A stretch of DNA of 64,000 nt from positions 896,001 through 960,000 of the forward strand of contig OZ254086.1 of the NCBI GenBank assembly GCA_965267575.1, read 5' to 3'. This DNA is from Calditrichales bacterium (GTDB lineage: Bacteria; Calditrichota; Calditrichia; Calditrichales; J004). Below are positions 13,473 through 45,778 of the stretch, in pieces. The first letter of the stretch is position 1, and the number at the start of each line of letters is the position of its first letter. The notes beneath the pieces were generated by a model. That model did no database searches. It was given only the letters and a program-made list of their open reading frames with translations, and was not told the DNA's origin. The position numbers and the translations under genes are program-made.

Positions 13473-13633
13473 TATTACAAAATGCCTTGTTTAGCGCATG
13501 TCTGCATGCAATAACACAACTAAACCTTTGTTATTAAACGATTTACTTTGATGCGCGCGCCGGACGATTTTTCGCTTGTTGTGTAAACATCAATCACACA
13601 ATCGTAATATTTTATCTTTTGCGCTGTGGATAA
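13428..13633. promoter_or_regulatory. DnaA-box cluster (three perfect boxes, one relaxed) with an IHF-like site
   Basis: TGTGGATAA at 13428-13436, 13439-13447 and 13625-13633; TGTGTAAAC at 13580-13588; TAAACCTTTGTTA at 13521-13533. Confidence 0.65.
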
Positions 13634-13638
13634 TTCGC

Positions 13639-15465: not shown

Positions 15466-15494
15466 GCTTCAGCTCCCTGTTTAGGAAAACACCG

Positions 15495-15653
15495 CTAGAA
15501 AATGGTGTAAATAAACGGTGCCAGCGCACTGCCCTGCGTTAAAACAATAAGCAGACCGAGGCTGATTAAGATGAAAATGATGGGAAAAAGCCACCACTTT
15601 TTATTTTCTTTCAAGAATGAAAAATATTCTGCAACAATACGTACTTTGGACAC
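15495..15653 (-). CDS. DUF5989/SxtK-like small membrane peptide (52 aa)
   Basis: Not in the ORF track. GTG start with GGAG RBS; MSKVRIVAEYFSFLKENKKWWLFPIIFILISLGLLIVLTQGSALAPFIYTIF*; KKWWLxP and SALAPFIYTxF are family signatures. Confidence 0.88.
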   Translation of the reverse strand: MSKVRIVAEYFSFLKENKKWWLFPIIFILISLGLLIVLTQGSALAPFIYTIF

Positions 15654-15733
15654 GATAAATCTCCATCTGGAATCACTGTAATAAACCCGGACACAGGCTT
15701 ATTGCAATGATTCGTCCGTTATGCTTTATGGAT

Positions 15734-15766
15734 AAAAATAAAAAGGAGGCGCAGGAGCGCCTCCTT
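15734..15766 (-). terminator. Intrinsic terminator ending the TBDR operon
   Basis: Minus strand reads AAGGAGGCGC-TCCT-GCGCCTCCTT followed by TTTATTTTT. Confidence 0.85.
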
Positions 15767-15783
15767 GTCAGATCAAACCACGC

Positions 15784-17817
15784 TTATTTCATCATTACCA
15801 TTTTACGTGTTTGTACAACGTCGCCGGCGCGCAGCTGGTAGAAATAGATTCCACTGCCAACCTGGACATTGCTGTTATCCAAACCATTCCATACCAGCTT
15901 ATGAGGTCCGGCCGTTAACTGACCGTTAACCAGCGTACGGATTGTACGACCGGTTACATCATAAACAACAAGCTGAACATCCGTAGCTTTGTTCAGAACA
16001 AACTCAATGTTTGTGCTGGGGTTGAAGGGGTTCGGATAGTTTTGGCGCAGGCTGATGCCTTCAGGAGCGATGATATCGCTGTAGTCATCGATAGCTGTTA
16101 CGCTGTCATAATAGGTACCGTTGGAACCGAATACACGGAATACCGGAGAAGTCGTAACATTGCCTGTATGGTTCTGGGCAAAACCGGCTTCGTTATCAAA
16201 ACCGTTAATGCCGTATTTCCAAACCATGTCCACACCGGCACCGGGGTTGAAGGTAACCGTAATCGACCAGACGTCATCACCGGCCGTAGCATCACCGTCC
16301 GTACCAGCGTCATTCATCTTCAGCGCTTCACGCGTGGGATCGCCGGGAGTAAGGTCCCATACCCAGGCCATTTCCGGATCAGTACCGGAGTGGCCGGAAG
16401 CGAGAAATACATCGTCAATGCTGCTTACATCACCGCCGCCAAAGGTAATGTTACCATACTGCTGCAGGTAACCGATAGCCGGAGTCATGTCAACTTCGAA
16501 AACGATGTTGGTTTCGGTTGTGAAAATATCATCCGGACCGATGTCGCTGAAATAAACCGTATCCAGGACAACTTCGCGGATGTCGTTACCGTTGCTGTCT
16601 TCTTCGTTACCAACGGCAAAGAAGGCACGGTTATCCGTATTGAATTTGGGATCAAAAGCACGGCTTTCCCACACGGTACCACTGCTGTTGGTAATGACAT
16701 ACTTGTAATAAACCGTGTCAGCAATCGGCGTAAGCGAATCTACCCAAATCGTTGAATAGAGGCTTGGATTGAACAGGTCCGGAGAAAGAATATCGCTCGG
16801 ACCGCTCCAGCCGTTGAAACTGCCGCGTACATCCAATGTGTCCGTAGCCGGATCAAATGTACCGGAAAGCTCCTGGATGGAGATGTCGCAGTTGAATACA
16901 ACTTCGAATTCATCTTTTTCGCCCGGCTCAATAACATAAAGATCGCCATTGGAGCCAAACTCACGGAAAACAGGCGATGTGCTTACATCACCCGTGTGGT
17001 TTTGGGCAAAGCCGGCTTCGTTATCATAGCCATTGATGCCGTATTTCCAAACCATGTCCGTACCGGCACCGGGGTTAAAGGTTACGGTAATGGACCAGAT
17101 ATCGTCTTCGGCAACCCTGTCACCATCCATACCGGAGTCATTCATCTTAAGCGCTTCACGCTTTGGATCGCCGGGTGTCAGGTCCCAAACCCAGGCCATT
17201 TCCGGGTCGGTGCCGGAGTGGCCGGAGGCCAGGAATACGTCATCGATGCTGGTAACATCGCCGCCGCCAAAAGTAATCTCGCCGTAGATATCGAGATAAT
17301 CGATGGCCGGAGTCATATCGACTTCAAAAACGACATCGGTTTCAGTCGTAAAAATATCGTCCGGGCTGATATCGCTGAAGTAGACGGTATCCAGAACAAC
17401 CTCTTTCAGGTCGTTTCCATTGTCGTCCGGCTCATTACCCGTGGCGAAGAAAGCGCGGTTATCGGTATTGAAATCCGGATCAAAAGCGCGGCTTTCCCAA
17501 ACGGTACCGCTGCTATTGGTTATTACGTACTTGTAATAAACCGTATCCTGAAGCGGAGTCAGTTCCAGTTCAACCAGAGTCGAATAGAGACTCGGATCAA
17601 ACAGATCCGGCGCCAGGATGTCGCTGGGACCGGCCCAGCCATTGAAGCTGCCGCGTACATCGAGCGTATCCGTTGCCGGATCAAATGTACCGGAGAGCTC
17701 CTGAACGGATATGTCGCAATTGAAAATCACTTCGAATGTTTCCGCTTCCTGGGCGAACGAAGTGGTAATCATAAAGAGCGACACTATCAGAGAGACGAAT
17801 GTAGCTTTGACTCTCAT
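15784..17817 (-). CDS. Secreted non-catalytic protein with two tandem carbohydrate-binding-like units and T9SS CTD
   Basis: Signal peptide; duplicated VRGSFNGW...YYKY (CBM20/SusE-like) and MNDxGxDGDxxAxDDxWS modules; QNYPNPFNP...RKMVMMK. Confidence 0.8.
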   Translation of the reverse strand: MRVKATFVSLIVSLFMITTSFAQEAETFEVIFNCDISVQELSGTFDPATDTLDVRGSFNGWAGPSDILAPDLFDPSLYSTLVELELTPLQDTVYYKYVITNSSGTVWESRAFDPDFNTDNRAFFATGNEPDDNGNDLKEVVLDTVYFSDISPDDIFTTETDVVFEVDMTPAIDYLDIYGEITFGGGDVTSIDDVFLASGHSGTDPEMAWVWDLTPGDPKREALKMNDSGMDGDRVAEDDIWSITVTFNPGAGTDMVWKYGINGYDNEAGFAQNHTGDVSTSPVFREFGSNGDLYVIEPGEKDEFEVVFNCDISIQELSGTFDPATDTLDVRGSFNGWSGPSDILSPDLFNPSLYSTIWVDSLTPIADTVYYKYVITNSSGTVWESRAFDPKFNTDNRAFFAVGNEEDSNGNDIREVVLDTVYFSDIGPDDIFTTETNIVFEVDMTPAIGYLQQYGNITFGGGDVSSIDDVFLASGHSGTDPEMAWVWDLTPGDPTREALKMNDAGTDGDATAGDDVWSITVTFNPGAGVDMVWKYGINGFDNEAGFAQNHTGNVTTSPVFRVFGSNGTYYDSVTAIDDYSDIIAPEGISLRQNYPNPFNPSTNIEFVLNKATDVQLVVYDVTGRTIRTLVNGQLTAGPHKLVWNGLDNSNVQVGSGIYFYQLRAGDVVQTRKMVMMK
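16108..17736. repeat. Intragenic tandem duplication with 828-bp (276-aa) period
   Basis: The FEVxFNCDIS units start at 17736 and 16908, with long identical peptide stretches. Confidence 0.9.
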
Positions 17818-17870
17818 AGATATACCTCCTGTTGATGGTTAGAGTAAAGGTTTTAAAATCCTGCACCCGC

Positions 17871-18890
17871 TTAAAGGCGCAGAAAAATGGTGAATTTCTG
17901 AACGTTATCAAGCCGCCCGAAATGCTCAAAGGCATAATCGAGCTGCATGTTGAGACCGCCAAAATCCTGACGGATGCCGCCACCCACGGTAAAGCCTTCT
18001 TCGCTGTCCGGCAGGAATAGTGCTTTGTAGCCGCCACGCAGCGCCAGCATATTGTCATACACATATTCGGCGCCGGCATTTACGCTTTGCGCGTTGTCAT
18101 TGGGGTGCATCACGTCGGACACAAGGGTCATTGTGTTTTTTTCGTTATTAACCAGATCGTAAGCCAGCCCAAACCGGAACAACAGGGGAAGGTCATACTG
18201 GCCCGTTTCCAGCAAAGCGTTAAGCTGATCATTATTACCGCTGATATTTTTATTTATGTCCACCTGCACCAGCAGGTCATCGCCGCTCATCTGCATTTTG
18301 CCGCCAAAGTTGGAGATGCTGATACCAAGACGCAGCCCGTCGAAAGGCGTGGTAAACAAGGCGCCCACGTCAAGGGCGAAACCGCTGGCCGAAGAGTTAT
18401 AGATATCTTCCTGAATGTATTTACCCGTGAAACCAATCATGAATTTGTCCGTCAGGCGACGGGCATAGGAGAGGCCTACGGCAAAACTTCCGGCCGAGAA
18501 CGTCACACCGGTACCTTCCGGATTGTCCTCCGTGGTCTGTTCAAATTCGCCCATATTCAGGTTGGTAATGCTCACGCCGAATACACCGGCCGTACCCACC
18601 GGCACCGCAACGCCGGCAAACTCAAAATTTATATCCGCCAGCCAATCGGAGTGGTTGAAAATTATTTCAGGTCTGTCGAGCTGGGCAATACCGCCAACGT
18701 TCCAGAACAACGCGGACGCGTCGTTGGAAACAGCGGTAAAAGCGCCGCCCATACTAAGCGGCCTTGCGCCAACACCGATGGTTAAGAAAGGAGCAGCCGT
18801 TGTACCCACCTTTGTAACGTCGCGCGCCTCGGCAACCACCTGGGCGCCCAGCAAAACGGTTATCACAAACAATGCGAGTTTTCGGTTCAT
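17871..18890 (-). CDS. PorV/PorQ (UPF0164)-family outer-membrane beta-barrel
   Basis: KVGTTAAPFLTIGVGARPLSMGGAFTAVSNDASALFWN; beta-strand pattern to the C-terminus. Confidence 0.85.
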   Translation of the reverse strand: MNRKLALFVITVLLGAQVVAEARDVTKVGTTAAPFLTIGVGARPLSMGGAFTAVSNDASALFWNVGGIAQLDRPEIIFNHSDWLADINFEFAGVAVPVGTAGVFGVSITNLNMGEFEQTTEDNPEGTGVTFSAGSFAVGLSYARRLTDKFMIGFTGKYIQEDIYNSSASGFALDVGALFTTPFDGLRLGISISNFGGKMQMSGDDLLVQVDINKNISGNNDQLNALLETGQYDLPLLFRFGLAYDLVNNEKNTMTLVSDVMHPNDNAQSVNAGAEYVYDNMLALRGGYKALFLPDSEEGFTVGGGIRQDFGGLNMQLDYAFEHFGRLDNVQKFTIFLRL

Positions 18891-18926
18891 AGTGCTAACC
18901 TCTTCCCGATAAATCGTTTCTCGTTG

Positions 18927-21900
18927 TTATTTGATGACGGCGAATTTGCCGACTTTTTTGCCAATCCCCGGCGCATCCACGTGATAGATGTAAACACCAT
19001 AGGCCACATCCAGCTGATCCCTGCTCAGCAGGTCCCAATCCGCGGTACCATCGGTAACGGTGGACTCGTGATGGATCGTATCGACGAGTTCGCCTCGCAC
19101 ATTGTATATGCGGATGGTACACACTTTGGGCAGGTGGATAAAGTGAATGGCCCGTTCACCGCGCCCGCTGCTGAAGGTGTTTCGCGGCTCCCAGGCTGCG
19201 GCGGCAATGTAGGGGTTGGGTACAACTTTAATTTTGTCAAGATCGTCTTTTGCAAGCGTTTTGTCTTCTTCCGGACCTTCTGCCGTGAACTCAAAACGGT
19301 CATAGCTCAGGAAAGGTTTGTTAACCGGCAGGATGAGCACGTCACCGGCCTGCGGCAGGACTTTTGTGCTGTCCCATAATGACATGGTTACGCTATATGT
19401 TGGATCATAGCGATCTCTTAACTGATTATATTCAAAGAATATGACTATATCATTTCCGTCCAGAACGCCTTTTAAGCTGTCCGGCTCGGAGTTAACGTTG
19501 TTGTCCGGTCCGCGCTCAAGGACGTTAAATTCTACATATCTGTTTTCCGACGTGTTCTTGACGCGGAAATTGACCGGCGTTTTTCTGAAGCTGTTGGGCA
19601 CCAGGAAGTTGGAGCTGGTGTCTATACCCGCTTCGCCTACTTCAATCTGGTAACTGGCCGGATAGCGCACGCCCTGGAAAACACTGAGGCTGAGCACAGA
19701 CCATCCCGCGGGTGTCGGCTTCAGGATATTGCGCGTTGTGTCCGTCCATGTAACCTCCGTAGGTACAGGACCGGTAATCCAATCGTTGCGCAGGCGCAGT
19801 TTCACGCCATCAAATACGGTGGCGTCCACGTTAATATTTGTATTCAGAGGTACAACGGTATCACCCGTCGTCACATTGTACACATAAAAGCCATCCGTCG
19901 TACGCAGGAAGGTTGTATCGCTTGCTCCGCGAACGATGTACTTGTCCGTAAAGCCAACCTGATAGGTATTGCCGTCCTTTACCTCCAGCGGATCAATAAC
20001 CTCCAGGGAGACGCTGCCGCTGGCATCGCCATCAACGCGCTCCAGGCTTTCCATGGCATCGCCCGGCGGTACATATCCGGCAACCGGAGCTTCAGGCCGC
20101 ACCACTACCACATTCTGGCCCAGCTCAATTTCACCGGCCGTGTTGATGGCGGCAAATTTGGATGTTTCCGACGGCTGCAGAATGCGGCGCTCACCGGAGG
20201 TCGGATCTGTTGCGTTGATACCGCGGTCATAAGCGGTAACCGCGTAGAAATAGTTGAAACCGTTTTTAACCGTGGTGTCTACATAGGTGTGGCGCAATCC
20301 CGTATTATCTCCCAGGTAAAATACAGCGCCCGTCTGCGGATCAACCTCGGGGAAAAAGCCGCTGTCGGCGTTTACAATATCAAATTGCGCAACAGGCACG
20401 TCACTTATGCGGCTGCCAAACACGTTGGTAACAACACCCGTTTCATCCCAGGTGGGGAAGGTAGCGCGGTAGACTTTATACCCCTCAAAATCATTACCGT
20501 CACCGGTAACAACTTCCGAAAGCCTGTCATAACTCTGCTCGGAATTGCTGTCCCAATACAAGGTAACTTTGTTGTCACCCGCGGCAGCCCTAAGCTTGGG
20601 CAACTGGGGTGCTTTTGCAAAATTGTAATCGTTATTATAAATAAGCTGTACGGTATTCTTTGTGCGGAAAATTTCGTTTTCGTTATTACCAAAGAAGAAG
20701 GCCAGCGAGATGCGTTCGGTCTGGTTGACCTGAAGCGGGAAGTAAGCCGTTCCGTAGATAAAGTCCACGTCATCGTTCTGCAGTTCGTCGTCGAAGTAGC
20801 CGGGAAGCAGTGTTTCCCAAAGCTGGTCATCGTTGCGCAGGCGGATCAGGTTAAACGGCTTGAACAAATAGAAACTCGTCAAACCGATCTGGTCAGACTC
20901 GTCAATATCCGTTTTATCGATATTAGGCTCACCGGGAAGACCCGTGTCAACAAGATTACCTGTGCCATCGTCCTGGTAACCCGACGTGGGCAATCCATCA
21001 CCTTCGCCAAAGTCGTTTGTACCCGGTTGACCGTCCAGACCCACGTCATCAATCGAGGCGTTCCAGTCTCCATCATTATCAATACCGTCGGCACGGCTTT
21101 CATCTATAAGCGGATTGGTGCTGTTACCGCCGATAAAGTCTTTATAGGCCAAACCGATTTGCGGGTTTTCTTCATCTACCAGACCGTTGTTGTTGTTATC
21201 GATACCGTCCTGGATCTCTGTGTTTTCATCGATAAGACCGTTTAGGTTGTTATCAATATTATCATAGGGCTGTTCGTACAGCGTATCGCCGGGCTGGAAG
21301 GAATAAGTTTCATCATTTACGGTAAACGTGATGCCTTCGGCGGGAAAATCTACAACGCTGCGTGTAAAGAACGGTGAATCATAATCGATCGTAACTACCT
21401 GCTCGCCTGTCTGTATGACCCGCGGTAACAATAAATCTTCCGTGATTACCGCACTTCCATCAGTACCATCATTGTCATCATCAAAACCATTTACGCTATT
21501 GCCCGGGCTTTCCAGGAAGGCGTAACCCAGGTAAGCAACAGGTGTCCATCCCGTTCCGCCGATATTATCATTATCCCAGGAATAGGTGATGTTTTCTCGG
21601 GCATTAAAACGGGAGTTGTCATCGTTTGTATCACCGTCGCCGCCGATTGTAGTACCGACGATCATGCCAAAAACGGCTTTATCGTAATTGGTTGTACCGA
21701 TGTTAGTCACATCATAAAGCCAAAAGACTGTATTTTGAGCCAGGGTTTGCGACCACTGCAAACCACGGACATTGGCAAGCAAAGCCAAACCTCCGCGAGT
21801 CGTGTCATTGGCATCTGGGAAAAAGTCAAAACCACGAATAAACTCCTTATCGCGGTTGTCATCCATTGCCCAGTAGCTTTCCTGGTCGGCATTAAACTGG

Positions 21901-22412
21901 TCCTTGCCAAAAAAGCCGTTCCACTGTCCGGGCCAGCCGGGGTCGTTGGCATCGGTGCGTCTGTCGGGCCAGTCCGTGGGCCAGGTTCCCCGCTGATGGC
22001 TCATGGCAACGCCACTGTCGGAAGCGTTAAAACCGGGCAACGGCTCCCAGCCCCAGAAAAAGGTGGGATCATTGGGGTCAACATCGTTGCTGCCGCGCGG
22101 TCCGTCAGACACGGTCACGGGCGTAATGATCTGGCCGTCGGATAACTCAATTTCAGCACCTACCATGATGCTGATGTCGCCTACGTAAAAATGACCGCTG
22201 TTGATAGGCCATTCACCGCCAAAATCTTCAGCGGCATTTTCACGGCCAATAAGACCATAATTAAAAAAGGTTGTCCGTACCTGGTTGCCGCTGTGAACGT
22301 TTTTTTCACGATTATTGGGATGCCCTTTGAGGGTCTCGTAATACTGCGCGGAAACAAGGGCGGGCAAAATGGCGATTATGGCAGCCAGCCGAATAAGGTG
22401 TTTCAGTTTCAT
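18927..22412 (-). CDS. Large acidic secreted protein (1161 aa) with Ca-binding-like repeats, FN3 domain and variant CTD
   Basis: Signal peptide; DGIDNxxxG repeats; AGDNKVTLYWD..FEGYKVYR FN3-like segment; C-terminal IKVVPNPY...GVYIYHV...GKFAVIK. Confidence 0.8.
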   Translation of the reverse strand: MKLKHLIRLAAIIAILPALVSAQYYETLKGHPNNREKNVHSGNQVRTTFFNYGLIGRENAAEDFGGEWPINSGHFYVGDISIMVGAEIELSDGQIITPVTVSDGPRGSNDVDPNDPTFFWGWEPLPGFNASDSGVAMSHQRGTWPTDWPDRRTDANDPGWPGQWNGFFGKDQFNADQESYWAMDDNRDKEFIRGFDFFPDANDTTRGGLALLANVRGLQWSQTLAQNTVFWLYDVTNIGTTNYDKAVFGMIVGTTIGGDGDTNDDNSRFNARENITYSWDNDNIGGTGWTPVAYLGYAFLESPGNSVNGFDDDNDGTDGSAVITEDLLLPRVIQTGEQVVTIDYDSPFFTRSVVDFPAEGITFTVNDETYSFQPGDTLYEQPYDNIDNNLNGLIDENTEIQDGIDNNNNGLVDEENPQIGLAYKDFIGGNSTNPLIDESRADGIDNDGDWNASIDDVGLDGQPGTNDFGEGDGLPTSGYQDDGTGNLVDTGLPGEPNIDKTDIDESDQIGLTSFYLFKPFNLIRLRNDDQLWETLLPGYFDDELQNDDVDFIYGTAYFPLQVNQTERISLAFFFGNNENEIFRTKNTVQLIYNNDYNFAKAPQLPKLRAAAGDNKVTLYWDSNSEQSYDRLSEVVTGDGNDFEGYKVYRATFPTWDETGVVTNVFGSRISDVPVAQFDIVNADSGFFPEVDPQTGAVFYLGDNTGLRHTYVDTTVKNGFNYFYAVTAYDRGINATDPTSGERRILQPSETSKFAAINTAGEIELGQNVVVVRPEAPVAGYVPPGDAMESLERVDGDASGSVSLEVIDPLEVKDGNTYQVGFTDKYIVRGASDTTFLRTTDGFYVYNVTTGDTVVPLNTNINVDATVFDGVKLRLRNDWITGPVPTEVTWTDTTRNILKPTPAGWSVLSLSVFQGVRYPASYQIEVGEAGIDTSSNFLVPNSFRKTPVNFRVKNTSENRYVEFNVLERGPDNNVNSEPDSLKGVLDGNDIVIFFEYNQLRDRYDPTYSVTMSLWDSTKVLPQAGDVLILPVNKPFLSYDRFEFTAEGPEEDKTLAKDDLDKIKVVPNPYIAAAAWEPRNTFSSGRGERAIHFIHLPKVCTIRIYNVRGELVDTIHHESTVTDGTADWDLLSRDQLDVAYGVYIYHVDAPGIGKKVGKFAVIK

Positions 22413-22430
22413 ATCTGTTGTCTCTCGTTT

Positions 22431-25121
22431 TTAAAAGTCAAACGAAACGCCAAACTGTACGCGTCGCGGTTCGGTGTAAAAATCGGGCCGGACGATAAAG
22501 CGCGGATCGGCATCGGCGCCGCTCACGGCACTTTGCAGCGTATAGGTAGCGCGTCCGGTGTCGCCCCAAACAACTTGCTCATTACGCGCGTCCAGCAGAT
22601 TGTAAACTTTCAGGAAAAGCTGAAGCTTTGTCTCCTTATCAAAAAAGTCCAGCGGTATATCTTTAAACAGCTGCATATCCAGTGTTACCAGGTTGGGACG
22701 GCGTTCGCTGTTTTGCTGCAAACCGATGGAACCGGCACTTGTACTGGCCCCGCGCTGCGTGCCCTGTACCGGAGTCGGCGTATATGGCAGCCCGCTCTCA
22801 AAACGTCCCAGCAAACTCAGCCCCCAGGTACCGACACCCACATATATATTACCGTTCAACACGTGGCGGCGATCCCAATCCAACGGAATAATGCTTTTGC
22901 GCGGCTCACGATTAGACTGTATGTCATTGAAAGCATCGGTCGGGTTGGAAGCATTACCTTCAGCAACCTGCATGGTGTAGGAAACGTTGGCCGAGTAATA
23001 ATTGGAAAAACGCTTGTTAAGCGAGAACGTGATGCCGCGGACATTGGCATAATCACGGTTTTCATATTGCGAATAAAGGATATCCGGGCGGTAGGTTTCG
23101 ATCAGCGGCGAGGTGCTTACCCAGTTGCGCACGTCACGATAGAAGCCGGTGACGTCAACGCCGATATCATCCGTCATTTGCTGCTGCAGGCCTATCTCGT
23201 ACATGACCGTGCGCTGCGGCTTCAGATCGGCGTTACCCACCAGGTTGCCCTGGCCGCGCGTAACCTTAAAGCCCGGGTTGGCATAAAGCAGCTGAAATTC
23301 GGGAATCTGCGAAAAGTGGCCGTAAGAAGCATGGATAACGCCTCGCGCACTGATCGGAAACGCCATACCGATACGCGGCGAAACGCTGTATTTGGGATCG
23401 GCCTTCTCATACCAGATGTCTTCCAGCGAAGAGGGTGTATCATCCTGGTACTCTTCTCTCAACGGCGAGAAGCGGCTGGGATCCTGCGGATCGGCAAGCA
23501 CATTACCCTTGGAGTCGAAGTAGTCAAAACGCAAACCGATATTCAGAATAAAGTCGTCATACTCCACTTTGTCCTGGATATAAAAGGCAAACTCAATCGG
23601 CTCAAAGGTATACTGACCAAAATTGATATCTTCTACCGGGGGCCTTATCGGTGTATAAAGCGTGTCCGAAACATTGGAATCGATGATATTGAAATCTTCA
23701 AGATTCAGCTCGTAGCGGCGCGCTTCAAAACCTGTTTTGATAAGGTGCTTATCCGAAATCTGTGACGTAATATCAAACTTCACGATGTCATTCAGGGTAC
23801 TGCGGTTAAAATAATTTGTCTGCTGCCCGCCCTTGGAAAACTGAAAGGCCGAAACGGCAAACTCCTCCGAGGCATTGTCCACATAACGCGGATCGGAAGG
23901 GCTTTCATAAACATATTGTTCGAATTCTTTTTTGAAGCTGGCAAGCTTTAAGGTATAAAACGTGGTTACGTTGATCGTATGGTCAAATGTGAGCGAGCCG
24001 TTATAACCGGTCTGGAACTTTTGGAACTCAGCATCCGGATTGAATTTGTAAAAGTGATTGTAATCCTGCCACTCACGGTCTTCATAATTGAAGCCAAAGC
24101 GCAGCTTCATGCTGGGATTGATCTGGTAGGTCAGTTTATTCTGCGATGTATACCAGCGGTTCCAGTTCATCGCTACAAAAGAGCTGTCGCCCGGCGTACC
24201 ATCCGTGTTAAAAATGCGCTGGCCGTAGAGATAGCCGTCATCGTAACTGTTGCGAAAGTTGGTAAAAAAGGTCAGCCGGCCGTTTGTGAAAGGTACAGGG
24301 CCGCCAACATTTACTTTCCAGTCGTAAAGGTGGCTCGGAGAAACTTCATCTATGTTGGTAAAAAGGCCGTCATCGCTGGATATGTAATCGCCCGTGTAAG
24401 CGGAAACGGAACCTGAATATTTCTGGCCGCCGTCTTTGGTCACAATATTGATAATACCGGACATGGCCTGGCCGTATTCAGCATTAAAGGTTCCGCTGAT
24501 GACCTGCAAGCTCTGAACAGCATCGTTTTCAATTTCCACACCATTACTGCCATCAAAAGCATCGGTCACCGAAACGCCATCCACCCAAAAGGCAACCTCG
24601 GAAGAACGGCCCCCGCGGATATGAAAACCACCGCCGGCATCCCGCGTGATACCCGCCTGCAACTGCAACACATCCTCAAACTCTTCAACCGGTATATTCG
24701 CGATATCGTCTGCCGTCACTTCAGATTGAGATGAAGTCAGGTCCTTACGGATCATATCGCGATCGGCCACAACAACGATCGACTCATCCAGCTCCATGGC
24801 ATCTTCACGTAACTGTGCGTTTTGGCGCGTAGTAAAGTCAACGCTGACCCTTACACCTTCAACGCGTTTTTCCTGATATCCGATGTATTGGAAGACAAGG
24901 GTGTAAACACCCGGCGGGACGTTAAGAATAAGGTAATTACCTTCAAGGTCGGTTGTGGCACCGAGGAAAGTACCGTCTACAAGTACGTTTACTCCGATAA
25001 GCGGTTCACCTGTGCCGGCATCCTCTACGGAGCCAACGATTTTACCGGTCGTACCCGCGCTTGCACTAATGGGAATGAGCAGGCTTATTAATAAACAAGC
25101 CTTGATGATTTTTCGCACCAT
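22431..25121 (-). CDS. TonB-dependent receptor
   Basis: N-terminal carboxypeptidase-regulatory-like domain; plug HIRGGRSSE..VDGVS; SGTFNAEYGQAMSGIINIVTKDG; SPRIGMAFP; C-terminal Phe. Confidence 0.93.
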   Translation of the reverse strand: MVRKIIKACLLISLLIPISASAGTTGKIVGSVEDAGTGEPLIGVNVLVDGTFLGATTDLEGNYLILNVPPGVYTLVFQYIGYQEKRVEGVRVSVDFTTRQNAQLREDAMELDESIVVVADRDMIRKDLTSSQSEVTADDIANIPVEEFEDVLQLQAGITRDAGGGFHIRGGRSSEVAFWVDGVSVTDAFDGSNGVEIENDAVQSLQVISGTFNAEYGQAMSGIINIVTKDGGQKYSGSVSAYTGDYISSDDGLFTNIDEVSPSHLYDWKVNVGGPVPFTNGRLTFFTNFRNSYDDGYLYGQRIFNTDGTPGDSSFVAMNWNRWYTSQNKLTYQINPSMKLRFGFNYEDREWQDYNHFYKFNPDAEFQKFQTGYNGSLTFDHTINVTTFYTLKLASFKKEFEQYVYESPSDPRYVDNASEEFAVSAFQFSKGGQQTNYFNRSTLNDIVKFDITSQISDKHLIKTGFEARRYELNLEDFNIIDSNVSDTLYTPIRPPVEDINFGQYTFEPIEFAFYIQDKVEYDDFILNIGLRFDYFDSKGNVLADPQDPSRFSPLREEYQDDTPSSLEDIWYEKADPKYSVSPRIGMAFPISARGVIHASYGHFSQIPEFQLLYANPGFKVTRGQGNLVGNADLKPQRTVMYEIGLQQQMTDDIGVDVTGFYRDVRNWVSTSPLIETYRPDILYSQYENRDYANVRGITFSLNKRFSNYYSANVSYTMQVAEGNASNPTDAFNDIQSNREPRKSIIPLDWDRRHVLNGNIYVGVGTWGLSLLGRFESGLPYTPTPVQGTQRGASTSAGSIGLQQNSERRPNLVTLDMQLFKDIPLDFFDKETKLQLFLKVYNLLDARNEQVVWGDTGRATYTLQSAVSGADADPRFIVRPDFYTEPRRVQFGVSFDF

Positions 25122-25260
25122 GTCCAGAGAGCTCCCTTAGGCTTTTAAGATGTGTTTTTCCTTCCGGAGAAATTGGTCACCCAGTTTTGAGTTACTAATC
25201 TAATAAAAAGTCTAGCTGATAAAAATAAATTTTTAACTTTTTTACCTGGAATTGCTCCTT

Positions 25261-26631
25261 TTACCAGTTGTATTGCTCTCTGACGACTGTAACGATTCGT
25301 GGCACCCTTTGCTGTAAGGCTTGCGGGGAGAGGCCTTCAAGGAGCGCACTGGTATCAACACGGGCGGGATTTTCCTGTCGTATTTCGGCGAGGATATTTT
25401 TGCGGTATTGCCATTCTGTGGGGTTTGCCTCAGCGGCACTAGCCAGCAGGATGGATTTCTGGTATTCGTCAGCGAGAAGTTCGCGACGGTATTTGGTCAT
25501 TTCCTGGCGGAAGCGCGGTGATTCGTCTATACCCAGTTCGCGGGCTTTTTTTAACAGGTAGTGGTCGCGCACCATATCTATAATCTGCCGGGCCATTGCC
25601 GTTTCGGAAAGCACTTCAGGGCGTTTCAGCGGCGGCATCCATTGCAGTTTTTCCATCAGGTCGCCAACGGTCCAGATGCCGTCATCGTATTGAACCAGTT
25701 CCTGATTCATCAGCGCCTCTGCCTCGCTGCGGATCAGTCGTATCTCCCGGTCGCTGATAGTAGGCTCAATTATAAAACGCTGGCCTTCGCTTCGGTCTAC
25801 ATATTTGCGCACCTGCTCCGTAAACTGCTGTAACACGGCTGAAACAATCGTTACCGATTTACCTTTCATTACTTCCTTCACAAAAGCGGCGCTCTCTTTT
25901 GCCGCCCGGCGGTTTTGGACATCTTCAGCAAAGGTCGTGCTGTTGTTCTTGAAATAGTTGCGGTCCAGAAAAAGGTTTTGCTTAACATTCTCCACGCGCA
26001 TTACGTGCCAGCCTCTGGTCGAACGCAGCGGCCGGGAAATCTCGCCGACACGCAAATTATAGACCGGCTCTACCAGGTAAGGGTCCAGGTCACTGACGCG
26101 CAGATAGCCGAGATAACCGCCATTATTTGCCAACGACGTATCACGAAAAGCGCCGCGCGCCAGCGTTTGAAAAGTCTCGCCCGATTGCAGTTTTTTGTAA
26201 TAAGCGGCAGCCTGCTGGCTATCGGGGGCAAAGAGGTGGCGCAGTTCCACACTGATATTTTGACGCTTGTATTCTTCCCAGGCTTCCTCTTCGCTCACTT
26301 CAATCTGGCCCAGCACCTGTTCGCGGTAAAGCTGCTTAAGCATTTCGTTATCGCGGATGTATTGCAAACGCTTTTCAACATGCTGCATGGTGTCCAGCCC
26401 ATAGCGTTCGGCGGCCTGCGCCAGGTAAACGCGGTCAACCATGTGATCAATCTGCTGCAGGTAGGCGCTGCGCAGCGTACTGTTGTTGCGAAAGTCCGGG
26501 TAAAGTGTAAAACGTTCGATAAAGTGTTCGCGCGTTATCGTATCGTCATCCACCCGGGCCACCACATTGGGGTCATCCTTTGTGCCGCAGCCGGCCACAA
26601 CAATCATTAATAAAAACAAAAAATATTTCAT
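25261..26631 (-). CDS. Lipoprotein parvulin-type peptidyl-prolyl isomerase (PrsA/SurA-like)
   Basis: VAGC lipobox; VARVDDDTIT; RHL..GETFQTLAR..NGGYLGY..GEISRPLRSTRGWHVMRV. Confidence 0.85.
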   Translation of the reverse strand: MKYFLFLLMIVVAGCGTKDDPNVVARVDDDTITREHFIERFTLYPDFRNNSTLRSAYLQQIDHMVDRVYLAQAAERYGLDTMQHVEKRLQYIRDNEMLKQLYREQVLGQIEVSEEEAWEEYKRQNISVELRHLFAPDSQQAAAYYKKLQSGETFQTLARGAFRDTSLANNGGYLGYLRVSDLDPYLVEPVYNLRVGEISRPLRSTRGWHVMRVENVKQNLFLDRNYFKNNSTTFAEDVQNRRAAKESAAFVKEVMKGKSVTIVSAVLQQFTEQVRKYVDRSEGQRFIIEPTISDREIRLIRSEAEALMNQELVQYDDGIWTVGDLMEKLQWMPPLKRPEVLSETAMARQIIDMVRDHYLLKKARELGIDESPRFRQEMTKYRRELLADEYQKSILLASAAEANPTEWQYRKNILAEIRQENPARVDTSALLEGLSPQALQQRVPRIVTVVREQYNW

Positions 26632-28631
26632 TGCGGATTCTCTTGTTGCTCACGGTAAGTTACTATTTTTTGGCGCAGATTTCGGGCCTGGGTCAGGCTC
26701 GGCTCCAGGCCCAGCGCTTTATCTATCTCGCGGTTGGCGTCTTCAAAGCGCTTCAGGTTGGCGTAGCTCACGGCCTGCAGATAATGAATATTGGCTTTCT
26801 GGAAATCACTGAAATCGCCGGTTTTCATATCGCGGCTTAGCGCCAGGGCCAGGTATTTTACGGCATTGTCAAACTGCTTTGCGAAAACATAGGCCTGGCC
26901 CAGCTTGACCATCAGGTTGGCGTTGGAGGGATCGCGCTCAAGGGCGTGTTTATACCAGCGCGGCGCTTCGCGGAAGTCTTCCTGCAAAGCAGCCAGATCG
27001 CCCAGCTTCATGTGCGGAATATAGTTGTCATAAAAAGCCAGATTTACGGCACGCAATTCATCGAATGCTTTTTTATACTGTTTTTGCGATGTGTAGTATT
27101 CGGCCAGGTCATAATGGGCTTCGCTCCAGGAGATTTCATTTTTCAGGTGGCGGTAAGCCAGGTTTGCCGTTTGCGGGTCAACCGTTTTCGATGGCTTTAT
27201 TTCAAAAGCATCGCCGCCGCTTTTAAAGGGCCAACGGTTTGTTAAAAGCTGCACACGCAAATGGCCGAATTCAAGATCAAGATCCGTAACGCTGCCACGG
27301 GTTTTGCGGTAACCGCTTAAAATATCGTTAATGTTGGATTGTTTGAGCAGCCGCGCTTCGTACGCGATGGGTTTGGGCGGATTTAACACCTGCAGGCGCC
27401 GCATCACCTCAAAGAAGGTCTGAGCCATCAAGCGGTAACCGTCGAAATTGGGATGCAAGTGCTCATGGAACAGGGTGCCGCCGGCAATACCTTTGGGAGA
27501 GGCCGCCTCAAAAACAACGCCCATATCGGCCAGCGGTACGTTATGCTTTTCCGCAACAAAGCCGATGCGCGCGTTTATCGCTTCCGGAGCTCGAAAGCGC
27601 AGCATGTCATGTTCTTTGGCCCGAAGGAATGCTTCACGCGCAGCCAGGCTGTCATCCAGCATCAGCAATGTCTTGCCCATCTCGAAATGGACATTGGCTA
27701 CGGCAGAATCGTTTTGTGCCGTTTCACGCAACAGTTGCAAAGCATCATCCGTGTCACCGTCTTCGCGGACAGATAATGCCCTGAGATATTTTTCGCGCAC
27801 GGCCGGCGCGGAAAAGTCCGCCGAGACAAAGGGCCGCTGGTCCGCCAGGTTGCTGACGAGTGTGCTCAGGATAACCGTAACACTGTCGGACTTGGCCATC
27901 TGTACAATCGCCGAAAGGTTCTCTTCAAAGTTGCGCACACCGGCACGGAAAACCGCATCGTTCTTTTCGATGGTACGGTCTTCCGCCAGCCGCTGCATCA
28001 GCGACGCATTTGCCTCGGAATCCCCGAAAAGCCCAATGGCCCCGTGTATGATATCATTTAAAAGCTGATAAATGCGGTAACGCTTTAAAGCAAAATGGGC
28101 CCGTACAAGCGAGGGGTTTTGTGTAAATGATATGGAAGAGGCCGCCCCGTAAGCGCCGTAAAATTCATTATGCCCCATGTATATAACGATCACATCAGGA
28201 TCGGCCTGCAGCACCTCCGGCATCAGGTCGCGCACGGTGAAGCTGTTCACCGCCGAGATGCCCAGATTGACCACTTCAACATAATGATCCAGCAGAGCGT
28301 TGCGCAGGCGGTACTGCAGCTGAAAGGGGAAGGTGGCATTCACCTCGTAGGGAAAACCGGCCGTGGTGGAACCGCCTAAACAGATCACACGCAACGATTT
28401 TTCCTGGCGCTCAACGTCAAACAGTTCTTCCGCTGCTTCAGGAATAATGTCATCTTTCAGGTCAAAATAGCGCCTGGTTACTTCCCGGTTTACCTGCCAT
28501 TTTTCCTTACCGCCCAGTTCCGTTTTGACAAATAGCGGGTACTCGCCGCCATAACCGGCTACCCTTAAAAAAACTTCACCGATAACAAAAATCAGTACCA
28601 CCGTGACAAACGAAAAGAGAACGCGTTTCAT
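26628..28631 (-). CDS. Membrane-anchored SGNH/GDSL-fold protein with TPR repeats (paralog 1)
   Basis: N-terminal TM; CLGGSTTAG, NLGISA, YMGHNEF and EHLHPN; C-terminal TPRs. Confidence 0.85.
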   Translation of the reverse strand: MKRVLFSFVTVVLIFVIGEVFLRVAGYGGEYPLFVKTELGGKEKWQVNREVTRRYFDLKDDIIPEAAEELFDVERQEKSLRVICLGGSTTAGFPYEVNATFPFQLQYRLRNALLDHYVEVVNLGISAVNSFTVRDLMPEVLQADPDVIVIYMGHNEFYGAYGAASSISFTQNPSLVRAHFALKRYRIYQLLNDIIHGAIGLFGDSEANASLMQRLAEDRTIEKNDAVFRAGVRNFEENLSAIVQMAKSDSVTVILSTLVSNLADQRPFVSADFSAPAVREKYLRALSVREDGDTDDALQLLRETAQNDSAVANVHFEMGKTLLMLDDSLAAREAFLRAKEHDMLRFRAPEAINARIGFVAEKHNVPLADMGVVFEAASPKGIAGGTLFHEHLHPNFDGYRLMAQTFFEVMRRLQVLNPPKPIAYEARLLKQSNINDILSGYRKTRGSVTDLDLEFGHLRVQLLTNRWPFKSGGDAFEIKPSKTVDPQTANLAYRHLKNEISWSEAHYDLAEYYTSQKQYKKAFDELRAVNLAFYDNYIPHMKLGDLAALQEDFREAPRWYKHALERDPSNANLMVKLGQAYVFAKQFDNAVKYLALALSRDMKTGDFSDFQKANIHYLQAVSYANLKRFEDANREIDKALGLEPSLTQARNLRQKIVTYREQQENPQ

Positions 28632-28654
28632 GTATACTGTTATGCTCCGTAAGA

Positions 28655-30772
28655 TTATTGTAATGTACCCAGCTGACGGGAAAACTGCCGCAAACCTTCA
28701 TCATCCGGTTTTAGTTGCAGTGCCCGATCGATCCATTGCCGCGCTTCGGCTATGTTGCCTGCCGCCGCCTGTATACGGGCCAGGGCGGCCATAAACGAAA
28801 TTTCTTCGGGATTTTGTCTCAATCCGTCCTGCAAAAGCCTCGCGGCTTCGTTGCCGCGTTGCTGGCGCAGTAAAAGCTGAACAAGGGCCGTCCGTGCGTT
28901 TACGTGTTGCGGATCAAGCTTAAGAGCTTCGCGGAAATCGCTTTCAGCGCGGTCCAGGCTTCGCGGCAGAAGTGAAAAGAGCTGGCCACGGTTAAAGTAA
29001 AGCGGCGCGTAGTCCGGACACATGTCAAGTCCGCGCTGATACCAGGTAAGGCCTTTTTGAAAACGCAGCGCCGCTTCACGCTGCTTTTGTGCACGGGCAT
29101 AGTCCTGGACGAGCGCTGTCTCCAGCAGCCCCAGCCGGTTATAGCCTTCGCAGCTTTCTTCAATGGCAAGCGATGCCTCATATTCGGCGCGCGCGCGCTC
29201 AAGGTCGCCCTCGCTGAAAAGCGCATAGCCGTAGTCCAGATGCAGCAGGTGCAGCGGCAAAGCACGATCAAAAATATAGAGCCTGGCCAGTTTTTCGGTC
29301 TGCTCGTTACCCACGCGGCGGTATGGTGCAACAGGACGACCGCTGTGCGTAAAAGGCCAGTGGTTTTTTAAGCGAAAGGCGGCCATGCCGGCCACTTCAT
29401 GCGATAAGATGGTCAGCTTGTTCATGTCCAGGTAAGCGGAATCGCTCAGGGCCAGCGACCAGTCCCACAACGGCGCAACGAGCCCTCTTTCGGACATGGT
29501 GAGAGCGATGGCTTTTGCCATGGCGTAATAGCCCAGCGCGTTGGGGTGTATGTGCTCCAGAATCAGATTTTCGCCGGGGACGCTGTCCGGTGATGTTTGA
29601 ACGAAGGCCGAAAAGACATCGGCCACGGGCAGGCCTTTGTAGCCGGCCACCTCCTTTATGATCGCATTAAACCGTGACGGTGCGCGGAAGCGGATAACGT
29701 CAAGATCGCGGGCGCGGATAAATGCTGAGAGCGCCCTGCTCTTTTGCCCTTTGGCCAGCAGGTTGCGGGCCAGCCAGTAATGCGCTTCGGCGTAGCTACT
29801 GTCTATTTGCAGGGCTACGTCAAGGTTGCGGATGGCGGCATCAGGCGCGCCTTCGTTGAAAAGTCTTTCACCTGCCTGAACCTGTTTTAAAAGCTCTTCG
29901 CGCGCCGGCTCATTCAACTTTTCCGCGGCTTGCGATCCCAGCGGTGGCAGATCACGCAGGTTGTCGGCCAGTGTGCAAAGCAGCAGCGGCACCTCTTTGT
30001 CTGAAGCAGCATCGGCCAGATCGAGCAGGTTGGCGCGGTAATGTTCCGCGGTGCGGTTCAGCAGGGGACTATCCAACGGTATTTCCGCATCCCGGGCCAC
30101 TGTGCCCATCAGCGTGGCCGGATCGATCACCGACCCGGCATCGATGGATTCGCCAAACAGGGAGATGTAGCTGTTACGCAGCAACAAAAACAGCCGGGAG
30201 CGCTGCAGGCCGAGAAAAAGACGCGTCAGCCCGCGGCTGTCAAACAACGTCAGCCGGGAAGCCGACCCCAAAGCGCCGTAAAATTCGTTATGCCCGCTGT
30301 AAACGATGAGCAGATCAGGCTCATAGCGCTCAAGAATTTCCAGCCCCATGTCCAGAACCGAATGACTGGTAATGGCCGTAACGCCGCAATTGACGATCTC
30401 GAAATCGCGCTGCGGATGAATGGATTCCAGAATATGGCCGAGCATGGCGGGAAAAGATGCGTTGGGCGGATAAGGCACACCCTGCGTGGTGGATGCACCG
30501 AGGCAGAAAATACGATAGGTTTGGGGATTTTTATCCAGGGCAAAGCTCTGGCTGCGCGGGTCCGGCGGCGTAATGCCTTTCTTGAAAAAATAACGCTGCA
30601 TAAAATTGGGGTTGAGCTCATAGCGCGCAGAGTCGCCGCTGCCTTTTGCCACAAACAGAGATGTATCGCCGCCGTAGTCCGCCAGGCGCAGAACACCCTC
30701 GGCTACAAGCAAAAGCACTACAAACAGAGCGACGGTTACAAAACTGAACAGAATTTTTTTAATTGGCGACAC
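28655..30772 (-). CDS. Membrane-anchored SGNH/GDSL-fold protein with TPR repeats (paralog 2)
   Basis: N-terminal TM; CLGASTTQG, NCGVTA, YSGHNEF and EHIHPN; TPRs. Confidence 0.85.
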   Translation of the reverse strand: MSPIKKILFSFVTVALFVVLLLVAEGVLRLADYGGDTSLFVAKGSGDSARYELNPNFMQRYFFKKGITPPDPRSQSFALDKNPQTYRIFCLGASTTQGVPYPPNASFPAMLGHILESIHPQRDFEIVNCGVTAITSHSVLDMGLEILERYEPDLLIVYSGHNEFYGALGSASRLTLFDSRGLTRLFLGLQRSRLFLLLRNSYISLFGESIDAGSVIDPATLMGTVARDAEIPLDSPLLNRTAEHYRANLLDLADAASDKEVPLLLCTLADNLRDLPPLGSQAAEKLNEPAREELLKQVQAGERLFNEGAPDAAIRNLDVALQIDSSYAEAHYWLARNLLAKGQKSRALSAFIRARDLDVIRFRAPSRFNAIIKEVAGYKGLPVADVFSAFVQTSPDSVPGENLILEHIHPNALGYYAMAKAIALTMSERGLVAPLWDWSLALSDSAYLDMNKLTILSHEVAGMAAFRLKNHWPFTHSGRPVAPYRRVGNEQTEKLARLYIFDRALPLHLLHLDYGYALFSEGDLERARAEYEASLAIEESCEGYNRLGLLETALVQDYARAQKQREAALRFQKGLTWYQRGLDMCPDYAPLYFNRGQLFSLLPRSLDRAESDFREALKLDPQHVNARTALVQLLLRQQRGNEAARLLQDGLRQNPEEISFMAALARIQAAAGNIAEARQWIDRALQLKPDDEGLRQFSRQLGTLQ

Positions 30773-30920
30773 GCTTCTTCCGCTGCTAAAAATGTAAAGA
30801 TGGTTATTTTAATAAAATCGTATTGCAAAAAAAAGACAGCGCCGGCTCTCTTTGGGGCCGCCCTTTACGCGTTTCCGTGAATTGCGTATTTTGCTTTTTT
30901 CTTTAAATGACCTGTCAACG

Positions 30921-40657: not shown

Positions 40658-40797
40658 ATACACTCCTTGGTCTGTTGTCTGTTTGTTAATTTGCTAAACC
40701 AACCTCATTTTTTCCAGCATAGCAAACAAATAAATTTGTACATTCAAAGTCCTGTTATTTAATTTCGGCTCTTGTAAACATAAAACACGAAAGAAAT

Positions 40798-45694: not shown

Positions 45695-45768
45695 GGTCCG
45701 GTAGTTCAATTGGTTAGAGCACCTGCCTGTCACGCAGGAAGTTGCGAGTTCGAGTCTCGTCCGGACCG
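45695..45768 (+). tRNA. tRNA-Asp (GTC), CCA not encoded
   Basis: Acceptor stem GGTCCGG/CCGGACC; D-arm TAGTTCAATTGGTTAGAGC; anticodon arm CCTGC-CTGTCAC-GCAGG; T-arm GCGAG-TTCGAGT-CTCGT. Confidence 0.97.
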
Positions 45769-45778
45769 CTCTAATTTT

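Follow-up and report, generated by a model that had tools for sequence, protein, structure and literature searches.

Prediction tools for polysaccharide utilization loci (PULs) rely on SusC/SusD pairs, as does much of glycan ecology in marine and soil settings. Lineages such as Ignavibacteria, Calditrichota and Marinimicrobia hence seem to have few importers dedicated to glycans; passages of one study describe susCD as scarce in the carbohydrate-active enzyme (CAZyme) clusters of Ignavibacteriales (PMC10576277). Here, we analyzed a stretch of 64,000 nucleotides (nt) from a Calditrichales bacterium (GenBank assembly GCA_965267575.1, contig OZ254086.1, positions 896,001 to 960,000; hereafter, the window), in which the gene for a TonB-dependent receptor (TBDR) is followed by genes for a large secreted protein with a variant C-terminal domain (CTD) of the kind that a type IX secretion system (T9SS) uses, and for an outer-membrane barrel of the PorV/PorQ family. 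These three genes, referred to as the trio, were shown to be inherited together and to lie in carbohydrate-utilization loci of varied specificity in Calditrichota, Ignavibacteriota, Fidelibacterota (Marinimicrobia), Rhodothermota, Kryptoniota, KSB1 and Stahliibacteriota. We read the trio as a SusD-less outer-membrane glycan import unit, and give this reading, taken as a whole chain, a probability of roughly 0.55. If it is true, the trio would offer a new marker by which substrate-specific uptake could be recognized in genomes of these phyla, a role would be assigned to a protein family that comprises at least 632 sequence clusters and at present bears the label hypothetical, and the principle that a cognate PorV-like barrel holds an uncleaved CTD would extend from secretion and motility to nutrient import.

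As in SusC/SusD systems, the TBDR of the trio bears a CarboxypepD_reg-like extension and its gene is directly followed by that of a large surface-directed protein, in loci that also encode glycoside hydrolases (GHs), regulators, sugar transporters of the inner membrane and additional surface binders, and with paralogues tied to different GH families. This contrasted with the properties of the individual proteins. The TBDR fails the curated SusC/RagA model TIGR04056, with 90.2 bits against a cut-off of 368.25 and a match to model positions 2-214 of 981 only; its partner of 1161 amino acids (aa) is beta-rich, carries a Sec signal peptide and not a lipobox, and has no TPR-like SusD fold or family match; and the surface attachment proposed for the trio, by a CTD held in a third protein, the barrel, is absent from SusCD.

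With regard to the T9SS, sections of a review (PMC10202324) report that PorZ and PorU keep their CTDs, bound to PorQ and PorV, respectively, that type B cargo depends on adjacent PorP/SprF barrels, and that cognate PorV-like barrels have been suggested to shield CTDs from cleavage; PorP-PG1035 and SprF-SprB complexes were demonstrated experimentally, according to an excerpt of a further paper (PMC9143113). The trio resembles PorZ-PorQ and PorU-PorV in having a CTD protein on a PorV-family barrel, with the C-end of PorZ as the best match of the CTD and with docking predicted here. It differs from both in that its barrel does not reach the equivalog cut-offs and is present several times per genome, beside TBDRs, in that the large protein, outside the CTD, matches PorZ just as a low-ranking structural hit, and in that its context is nutrient uptake, not cargo processing. 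As in type B pairs (SprB-SprF, PG1035-PorP), the cargo gene adjoins its own barrel gene, the CTD is thought to stay uncleaved and to serve as an anchor, and the type B family CHU_C is the commonest Pfam match of the variant CTD; unlike in these pairs, however, the barrel belongs to the PorV/PorQ family and matches no PorP/SprF model, the type B model TIGR04131 is matched by a single variant CTD, and a TBDR is always in the set.

Parts of the architecture are also found in two more distant systems. SusD-less carbohydrate loci centred on TonB-dependent transporters (TBDTs) in Proteobacteria, which we take to be those called 'CUT loci', lack a T9SS cargo or PorV-like barrel in fixed position beside the transporter. 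As described in a portion of one paper for the Xanthomonas sux locus, they share with the trio a glycan TBDT without SusD that has GHs, a regulator of the LacI type and a transporter of the inner membrane as neighbors (PMC12798719). Similarly, BamG-BamH of the Bacteroidota β-barrel assembly machinery (BAM) offers, in the sections of PMC12578637 on this complex, a 14-stranded FadL/PorV-like barrel that acts as the platform of a surface protein next to a larger barrel, together with peptidyl-prolyl isomerase (PPIase) lipoproteins. In contrast, the barrel in the window reaches 21.7 bits on the BamG model (cut-off, 250 bits), its partner would be held by a CTD and not by a lipid anchor, and the context is a CAZyme locus.

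No paper describing the trio arrangement was retrieved in our full-text literature search. The Caldithrix abyssi genome paper contains no occurrence of SusC, SusD, PorV or T9SS, and a 2026 review of glycoside transporters contains none of PorV, type IX, Ignavibacteri-, Rhodotherm- or Calditrich-. A locus table for xylan utilization in Rhodothermus marinus (PMC6987092) lists Rmar_1070 as a TonB-dependent receptor, Rmar_1071 as a hypothetical protein with a Por sorting domain, Rmar_1072 as a hypothetical protein and Rmar_1073 as a further hypothetical protein with a sorting domain, with GH43-CBM6 and GH10 genes as well as a separate SusC/SusD pair nearby, and the portion of the paper that accompanies it makes no comment on the four genes. 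Judged from the published table alone, Rmar_1070-1073 look like the same trio, in a context resembling that of our locus L026. Hence, in the literature searched, TBDT-centred glycan loci and cognate PorV-like anchors are known, and their fixed combination and the large protein family appear undescribed.

Organization and conservation of the trio

The trio is encoded on the minus strand of the window by the genes for an 896-aa TBDR (22431..25121), the 1161-aa large secreted protein (18927..22412), which matches no Pfam family at E ≤ 0.01, and a 339-aa barrel (17871..18890). Flanked by genes for a lipoprotein PPIase and a tandem CBM20-like protein, it forms a unit of five co-oriented minus-strand genes (15784-26631), with intergenic gaps of 139, 18, 36 and 53 nt in the order PPIase, TBDR, large protein, barrel and CBM20-like gene. 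All five lie where the initial annotation had placed them, and its observation held in each detail examined; the arrangement is not a product of chance, since it recurs in related loci.

These loci were obtained from a genome scan with one genome per species, in which the large protein served as bait and 620 pattern matches were found, 534 of them encoding a relative. The best 80 loci were kept, ranked by likeness to the member from the alpha-glucan locus, and the sample leans to alpha-glucan types. By record title, they belong to Ignavibacteriota (17 loci), Fidelibacterota (12), 'Bacteroidota' (11), Calditrichota (10), Rhodothermota (5), Stahliibacteriota, Kryptoniota and Acidobacteriota (one each) and unclassified records (22), i.e., to at least eight phylum labels, with KSB1 also present among the titles and protein names.

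Neighbors were counted by searching the five window proteins against all open reading frames (ORFs) of the 80 loci, which contain 83 genes of the large-protein family. A TBDR was found within 1500 nt upstream of the large gene in all 68 cases with at least 1500 nt of upstream room, with the barrel gene in between in 4 of them. Likewise, the barrel gene adjoined the large gene in 67 of the 69 cases with at least 900 nt of downstream room (64 after it and 3 before it); the two misses, in L027 and L028, are fragments of frameshifted genes, the last piece of which is followed by a barrel gene. Seen from the barrel, an ORF of the large-protein family is the neighbor of 73 of the 74 PorV-like ORFs that the loci contain. 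Consecutive NCBI locus tags serve as independent examples (D6748_09110/09115 and D6681_21745/21750), and the tags of a third pair (Kow0037_02220/02230) are close in numbering.

Four loci (L049, L071, L076 and L077) carry tandem trios on one contig, and a single Calditrichota metagenome-assembled genome (MAG) holds two trios (L003 and L016) that differ in their GH neighbors (GH94 and GH66) and fall into two clades of the tree described below; as far as these cases go, the trio has multiplied within genomes in the manner of PULs. The identity matrices of the three proteins were correlated (Spearman 0.64–0.67), and the nearest relative was shared in 32 and 31 of 54 comparisons. We considered this correlated divergence as evidence of contact and set it aside, because it is moderate and shared descent explains it.

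The TBDR itself consists of the N-terminal CarboxypepD_reg-like extension (PF13715, E = 4.1e-20), a plug (PF07715, E = 6e-11, residues 126-222) and a large C-terminal barrel, as expected for TonB-dependent receptors, with matches to siderophore receptor models at residues 617-743 of the barrel region. When searched against the sequences of the PDB, either as a single sequence or as a 25-sequence profile, it aligned only to the plugs of siderophore-type receptors (CirA, FepA), and the SusC homologue 8aa4_A aligned over the N-terminal extension and plug only. By the curated NCBI model, then, the TBDR is not classified as SusC. The initial annotation had also claimed that this TBDR lacks a SusD partner nearby, and this proved to be the case: no SusD match was found among the 35 window ORFs scanned (25 at E ≤ 1e-5 and 10 at E ≤ 0.01), nor among 280 flanking ORFs of 66 related loci (E ≤ 1e-10 or 1e-15), the latter being scanned with Pfam out of 324 ORFs of at least 180 aa, with the remaining 44 located in L069-L080. 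Neither the scanned window ORFs nor the scanned flanking ORFs thus include the SusD/RagB gene beside a TBDR by which SusC/SusD-type PULs are defined.

The large protein, its variant CTD and the adjacent barrel

The large protein starts with a Sec-type signal peptide, without a lipobox, which is followed by a conserved Asp/Gly-rich beta domain (residues 28-600; hereafter, N-domain), an FN3-like region (600-780), a variable beta-sandwich region (781-1045) and the variant CTD (1057-1161). In the AlphaFold2 (AF2) model based on a 41-row alignment (pLDDT 77.6, pTM 0.66), nearly all of the protein is beta, and the N-terminal unit (approximately residues 28-600) shows several Asp/Gly-rich loops, at low confidence. 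Across the same 41 sequences, the mean majority-residue fraction was 0.75 in the CTD, 0.65 in the N-domain and 0.42 in residues 781-1045 (19278..20072, minus strand); this least conserved region, modeled as beta-sandwich strands, is our candidate for the specificity region.

A word-indexed search recovered 2044 relatives of the large protein at E ≤ 0.001 among 8000 scored candidates, and when cluster representatives (50% identity) were searched exhaustively, 632 clusters were recovered at E ≤ 1e-30 and 2160 with the looser threshold of E ≤ 1e-10. The best 120 relatives are without a precomputed Pfam domain and, where named, are all 'hypothetical protein'. The same name applies to all 30 nearest clusters of the ESM Atlas, which share no common Pfam family; in one ESM Atlas cluster (score 0.90), Por_Secre_tail is present in 61% of the members. 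The family profile gave no match to PDB sequences at E ≤ 1. Going by sequence comparison, the large protein founds a big unnamed family. Many distant relatives match residues ~435-825 only, i.e., Asp-rich loops and the FN3-like region, and differ at the other ends, and this segment is therefore also a module in other architectures. When the N-domain was modeled separately (pLDDT 77.2), the only matches were weak ones, with a best E of 2.1e-5 (TM 0.21) and TM values around 0.2, to supersandwich domains found in enzymes acting on carbohydrates, namely dextran dextrinase, PL26, GH94 and mutarotases; we treat them as a lead and not as a finding.

Alignment of the C-terminal 105 residues (in the window, 18930..19244, minus strand) across 27 trios revealed an invariant N-P-Y, a G-x-Y and a terminal K, and the tail motifs quoted in the initial annotation were present in the translation; AF2 places seven strands in this domain (1062-1159). 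Profile-profile alignment (hhalign) against the six type A CTDs of the window gave a probability of 94.9% (E = 4.6e-8, 50 columns). The top NCBIfam match of the variant CTDs was the C-end of PorZ (25/27, best 1.2e-8), with the PorU C-end also found in 25/27, the type A model TIGR04183 in 21/27 (best 2.5e-4) and the type B model TIGR04131 in 1/27, while the Pfam matches were CHU_C (15/27 at E ≤ 0.1, best 1.6e-6), FlgD_ig (6) and Por_Secre_tail PF18962 (3). As a control, the six ordinary CTDs of the window matched TIGR04183 and PorU in 6/6 cases each (best for the former, 4.1e-13) and PorZ in just 2/6. No curated CTD model reached its own cut-off on the variant CTD of the window (TIGR04183, 16.3 bits with a cut-off of 23; CHU_C PF13585, 17.2 bits with a cut-off of 27; cut-off of PF18962, 27 bits), which is thus not assigned to type B by PF13585 or TIGR04131.

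A hidden Markov model (HMM) of the variant CTD recovered 78 ORFs of the large-protein family (median 146 bits) and, weakly (17–33 bits), 24 type A proteins. With this HMM and the Pfam/NCBIfam scan, six ordinary type A CTDs (in the genes at 5079-6311, 7159-10044, 15784-17817, 39023-40663, 50522-51871 and 52046-52870) were distinguished in the window from one variant CTD, as had been claimed, and the window contains one PorV-like barrel. Judging from these matches, the tail is a T9SS CTD that has diverged and has its nearest counterpart in the CTD that PorZ retains. Following the PNP motif, the variant CTD carries a strongly conserved insertion of some 17 residues (W-E-P..N....G-R-G.R; residues 1067-1083, 19163-19213). 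This insertion is disordered in the AF2 model (pLDDT < 50) and lies mostly outside the confident barrel interface described below, which makes it a candidate contact to a third partner as far as the models go.

The barrel scored 229.3 bits on the PorV/PorQ family model NF033709 (cut-off 90) over residues 30-336, which places it within this family. It remained below the equivalog cut-offs of PorV (NF033710, 92.1 vs. 250 bits), PorQ (NF033711, 91.6 vs. 220 bits) and PorV2 (NF052325, 82 vs. 325 bits), and its nearest solved chain is Flavobacterium johnsoniae PorV (6h3i_F, E = 1.3e-12). Among 26 trio barrels, all matched PorV_fam, and PorQ (best 3.1e-40) outscored PorV (1.4e-29); weak BamG matches were seen in 15 of the 26 (best 2.4e-7). 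No match to PorP/SprF models was obtained with the window barrel at E ≤ 0.01 or with the 26 barrels at E ≤ 0.001 in NCBIfam. That the barrel is simply the organism's own PorV or PorQ was ruled out on the basis of the equivalog cut-offs and of the several copies per genome. The sole PorV-like ORF of the loci that does not adjoin a large-family gene (L057:3251-4324) scores lower, at 146.6 bits, on the barrel HMM and may represent a different paralogue class.

Finally, the CTD (105 residues, 27-row alignment) was co-folded with the adjacent barrel (residues 22-339, 26-row alignment). The score was 0.92 in three runs, and the best of three controls gave 0.00; the score mark is reached by 116 of 157 solved complexes and by 2 of 215 mismatched pairs, a guide that is rough only, since our own alignments were used. 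The runs agreed in at least 94% of contacts, with a partner pLDDT of at least 81. Confident contacts involve, on the CTD side, the PNP segment (6-14), a strand (45-54), the region of the G-V-Y strand (74-90) and the last ten residues and, on the barrel side, the N-terminal segment 25-38 and several loops. These models therefore predict with high confidence that the CTD docks on the barrel encoded next to it, by way of its conserved PNP, G-x-Y and C-terminal motifs. Two expectations of the initial annotation are borne out at this level, i.e., that the variant CTD, detected strongly by its HMM only in the large-protein family, is coupled to an adjacent PorV/PorQ paralogue across genomes, and that the large protein has an interface with its own barrel, which is predicted for the CTD.

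Carbohydrate context, proposed mechanism and alternatives

At least one GH family was found in the fetched flanks of 35 of the 66 scanned loci: GH13 or GH77 in 20, GH94 in 9, GH26 in 2, and GH66, GH29 with GH31, GH43 with GH10 and GH127, and GH31 in one each. The GH94 genes mostly co-occur with PF10091, the family of the GH144 beta-1,2-glucanases. The flanks commonly also encode regulators (LacI, TrmB or hybrid two-component), sugar transporters (SSF or ABC), sulfatases and proteins with a type A CTD. In order to compare this context with descent, a FastTree phylogeny of 73 full-length large proteins was used, with ORFs shorter than 1000 aa or containing X excluded. The branching of the large proteins parallels the neighboring GH family, a pattern as in SusC/SusD paralogues: the 25 rows labelled by neighboring GH require five changes, which is the minimum possible, compared with an average of 11.8 in shuffled labels, none of 200 shuffles reaching a value that low. 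Calditrichota and Fidelibacterota are both represented in the GH94 clade (9 rows, support 100), and the window forms a group (support 98) with another four GH13 loci, which come from Calditrichota, Stahliibacteriota and unclassified MAGs. Because relatives share labels, this demonstrates substrate-linked subfamilies rather than co-evolution.

The window locus is an alpha-glucan utilization locus. Downstream of the five-gene unit, and likewise on the minus strand, Pfam/NCBIfam matches identified an SSF symporter (13639-15465), an esterase-like protein (12264-13472), a TrmB regulator (11453-12364), a GH13 enzyme (10092-11456) and a second GH13 enzyme that carries a type A CTD (7159-10044). In the mechanism that we propose, the T9SS-displayed GH13 and the tandem CBM20-like protein would bind and cut alpha-glucan outside the cell, the latter as an extra binder of the alpha-glucan version, the trio would import the products, the GH13 without a CTD would trim them, the SSF symporter would move them into the cytoplasm, and TrmB would regulate the locus. 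Within the trio, the large protein would be exported by the T9SS and would then keep its CTD, as do PorZ on PorQ, PorU on PorV and type B cargo on PorP/SprF, so that its own PorV/PorQ-like barrel would pin it to the cell surface beside the TBDR. Residues 781-1045 and the conserved N-domain may capture oligosaccharides and pass them to the TBDR, the role of SusD and surface glycan-binding proteins in Bacteroidia, with the variable region giving glycan specificity. The lipoprotein PPIase could be a clade-specific helper, perhaps in folding or assembly of the outer-membrane parts.

Several observations weigh against this reading. No result obtained here places the large protein or the barrel in contact with the TBDR, and we infer T9SS dependence, CTD retention, TBDR contact and glycan binding of the large protein; the window contains no T9SS core gene, and export by this route is deduced from the CTD and the six nearby type A CTD genes. 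The co-fold result may reflect likeness to solved PorV-cargo complexes (8gl6 to 8gln share a PorV chain). The fold search of the whole model against the PDB was uninformative as to function, returning only FN3/Ig chains and, by Foldseek, PorZ (5m11) at rank 6 with a TM of about 0.1, and no glycan-binding fold was recognized in the large protein by the fold searches. In addition, 31 of the 66 loci have no GH in the fetched flanks, many of which are short, and a few of these loci show peptidases only (M24 in L028, S8 in L040 and M13 in L043); the trio may therefore not be glycan-only. A sample baited with the large protein and made up of the best 80 of at least 534 loci cannot count PorV paralogues without a partner. 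Lastly, as parts of two papers indicate, SusC/SusD pairs exist in R. marinus as well (PMC6987092) and in Melioribacter roseus, where SusCDE belong to the starch operon (PMC3534657), and the trio therefore does not just take their place in every organism that carries it. Accordingly, of the 'alternative PUL architecture' put forward by the initial annotation, the CAZyme loci of varied specificity, the absence of SusD nearby and the coupling of CTD and barrel stood, and the role as a lid, contact with the TBDR and glycan binding remain proposals.

The main rival takes the large protein and the barrel as a T9SS cargo-anchor pair, a surface glycan-binding or scaffold protein that is co-regulated with the TBDR without forming a complex and is SusE/F-like rather than SusD-like. 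CTD-barrel coupling and the predicted docking fit it equally well, and type B cargo-PorP/SprF pairs exist without a TBDR, according to a portion of PMC9143113. The presence of a TBDR beside the pair in 68 of 68 cases, the fixed gene order with gaps of 18–36 nt here, and the similar divergence of the three proteins argue beyond loose co-regulation, yet shared descent alone could yield them, and we regard this explanation as unlikely, though as the most probable of the alternatives. A rather improbable alternative is that the large protein is a new surface carbohydrate-active enzyme (hydrolase, lyase or phosphorylase-like), with the barrel merely an anchor. The many invariant Asp, Glu and Trp residues of the N-domain and its weak fold matches would suit an enzyme. 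However, these matches hit non-catalytic supersandwich parts with a TM of about 0.2, and the same N-domain occurs in alpha-glucan, GH94-type, mannan (GH26), dextran (GH66) and xylan/arabinan (GH43/10) loci, so that a single catalytic specificity is unlikely.

The barrel, and the PPIase with it, might instead be assembly factors of the TBDR, like BamG and the PPIase lipoproteins of BAM, or the barrel might be a FadL-type channel itself. The weak BamG matches of the trio barrels point this way, as does the nature of BamG, described in sections of PMC12578637 as a 14-stranded FadL homologue that holds surface lipoproteins in the same complex as PPIases, and some sources name relatives of the barrel 'long-subunit fatty acid transport protein'. 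Nevertheless, all 26 barrels match PorV_fam, PorQ and PorV far better than BamG, the barrel multiplies with the trio, unlike a housekeeping factor, in the four tandem loci and in the MAG with two loci, and the CTD docks on the barrel in the prediction, which leaves this option with a low probability. Lower still is the likelihood that the TBDR exports the large protein, with no glycan import, as Myxococcus Oar is needed for the secretion of PopC (part of PMC6434023). Such a role would be compatible with the CarboxypepD_reg-type N-terminal domain of the TBDR, but the T9SS-type CTD and the adjacent PorV/PorQ barrel already account for export, and the periplasmic or cytoplasmic GHs and inner-membrane sugar transporters of the loci need an import route. 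Returning to the glycan import reading, its most far-reaching version remains tentative: a stable three-part machine, in which the barrel would sit against the TBDR and hold the uncleaved CTD, the CTD insertion could contact the TBDR, the Asp-rich N-domain would cap the TBDR as a SusD-independent lid and the variable domains would select the glycan. Nutrient import would then be T9SS-dependent, as a second, possibly older, solution of the FCB group in parallel to SusCD.

Accessory proteins and other features of the window

The 456-aa PPIase (25261..26631, minus strand) combines a PPIC-type rotamase domain (PF00639, E = 3.7e-13) with a SurA_N-like domain (SurA_N_2, E = 4e-05) and has a lipobox Cys. 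By these matches, it is a parvulin-type (SurA/PrsA-like) lipoprotein and an accessory member of the locus. The initial annotation had presented it as a dedicated periplasmic PPIase, which was not confirmed: a homologue was found anywhere in the locus in just 28 of the 80 related loci, mostly alpha-glucan and GH26 loci and in none of the nine GH94-type loci, and, as a lipoprotein, it may lie on either side of the membrane. The PPIase is thus not core to the trio. Its lipobox Cys (N-terminal region, window 26560-26631) is followed by G-T-K-D-D, and in several homologues from related loci K/E/D-rich residues after a Cys were noticed by eye. Residues of this kind after the lipobox Cys resemble the surface-lipoprotein export signal of Bacteroidota. 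In a search for an acidic export-like motif after the lipobox Cys of the PPIase homologues, the lipobox pattern was matched in just 7 of 28. The PPIase could face outward, as do the PPIase lipoproteins of the Bacteroidota BAM complex.

The 677-aa protein encoded by the last gene of the unit (15784..17817, minus strand) gave weak matches to CBM_20 (5.1e-06) and CBM53 (2.3e-04), together with those of a type A CTD (Por_Secre_tail, 8.4e-07; TIGR04183, 1.5e-09), and consists of two repeats of about 270 aa that are 85% identical (227/267). The ORF at the same position in L048 matched CBM_20 at 5.4e-24, plus X25. The CBM20-like protein is probably a T9SS-displayed alpha-glucan-binding protein. Directly 3′ of its stop codon, a hairpin with a 10-pair stem, 7 G-C pairs and a T-rich tail (15743..15766, minus strand) closes the five-gene unit and was the strongest terminator-like site in a scan of 13400-31200. 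A sigma-70 promoter scan returned 12 sites with 18.3 expected and was uninformative on the promoter.

Upstream of the PPIase lie two minus-strand genes for GDSL/SGNH proteins with TPR matches (26628..30772; Lipase_GDSL_2), and a third, divergent paralogue is on the plus strand, so that three GDSL/SGNH-hydrolase and TPR genes occupy 26628-32828. The start of the PPIase gene overlaps the adjacent one of these, the second upstream gene of the pair, by 4 nt, and the two are translationally coupled; a gene similar to the GDSL/TPR genes precedes the PPIase in the related locus L001 too. On the other side of the unit, the esterase-like and TrmB ORFs overlap by ~100 nt as listed, one of the two starts probably sitting further downstream, and esterase-family genes are found again in the alpha-glucan trio loci L001 and L036. 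Elsewhere in the window, at 45695-50303, a stretch with a GC content of 0.35–0.37, compared with ~0.50 elsewhere, starts directly behind a tRNA-Asp gene (45695-45769). It encodes a hybrid two-component regulator of 1385 aa with Reg_prop, Y_Y_Y, HisKA, HATPase, receiver and AraC HTH domains, which is followed by two type A CTD genes, one of them GH130-like, and it may represent an acquired glycan-sensing island.

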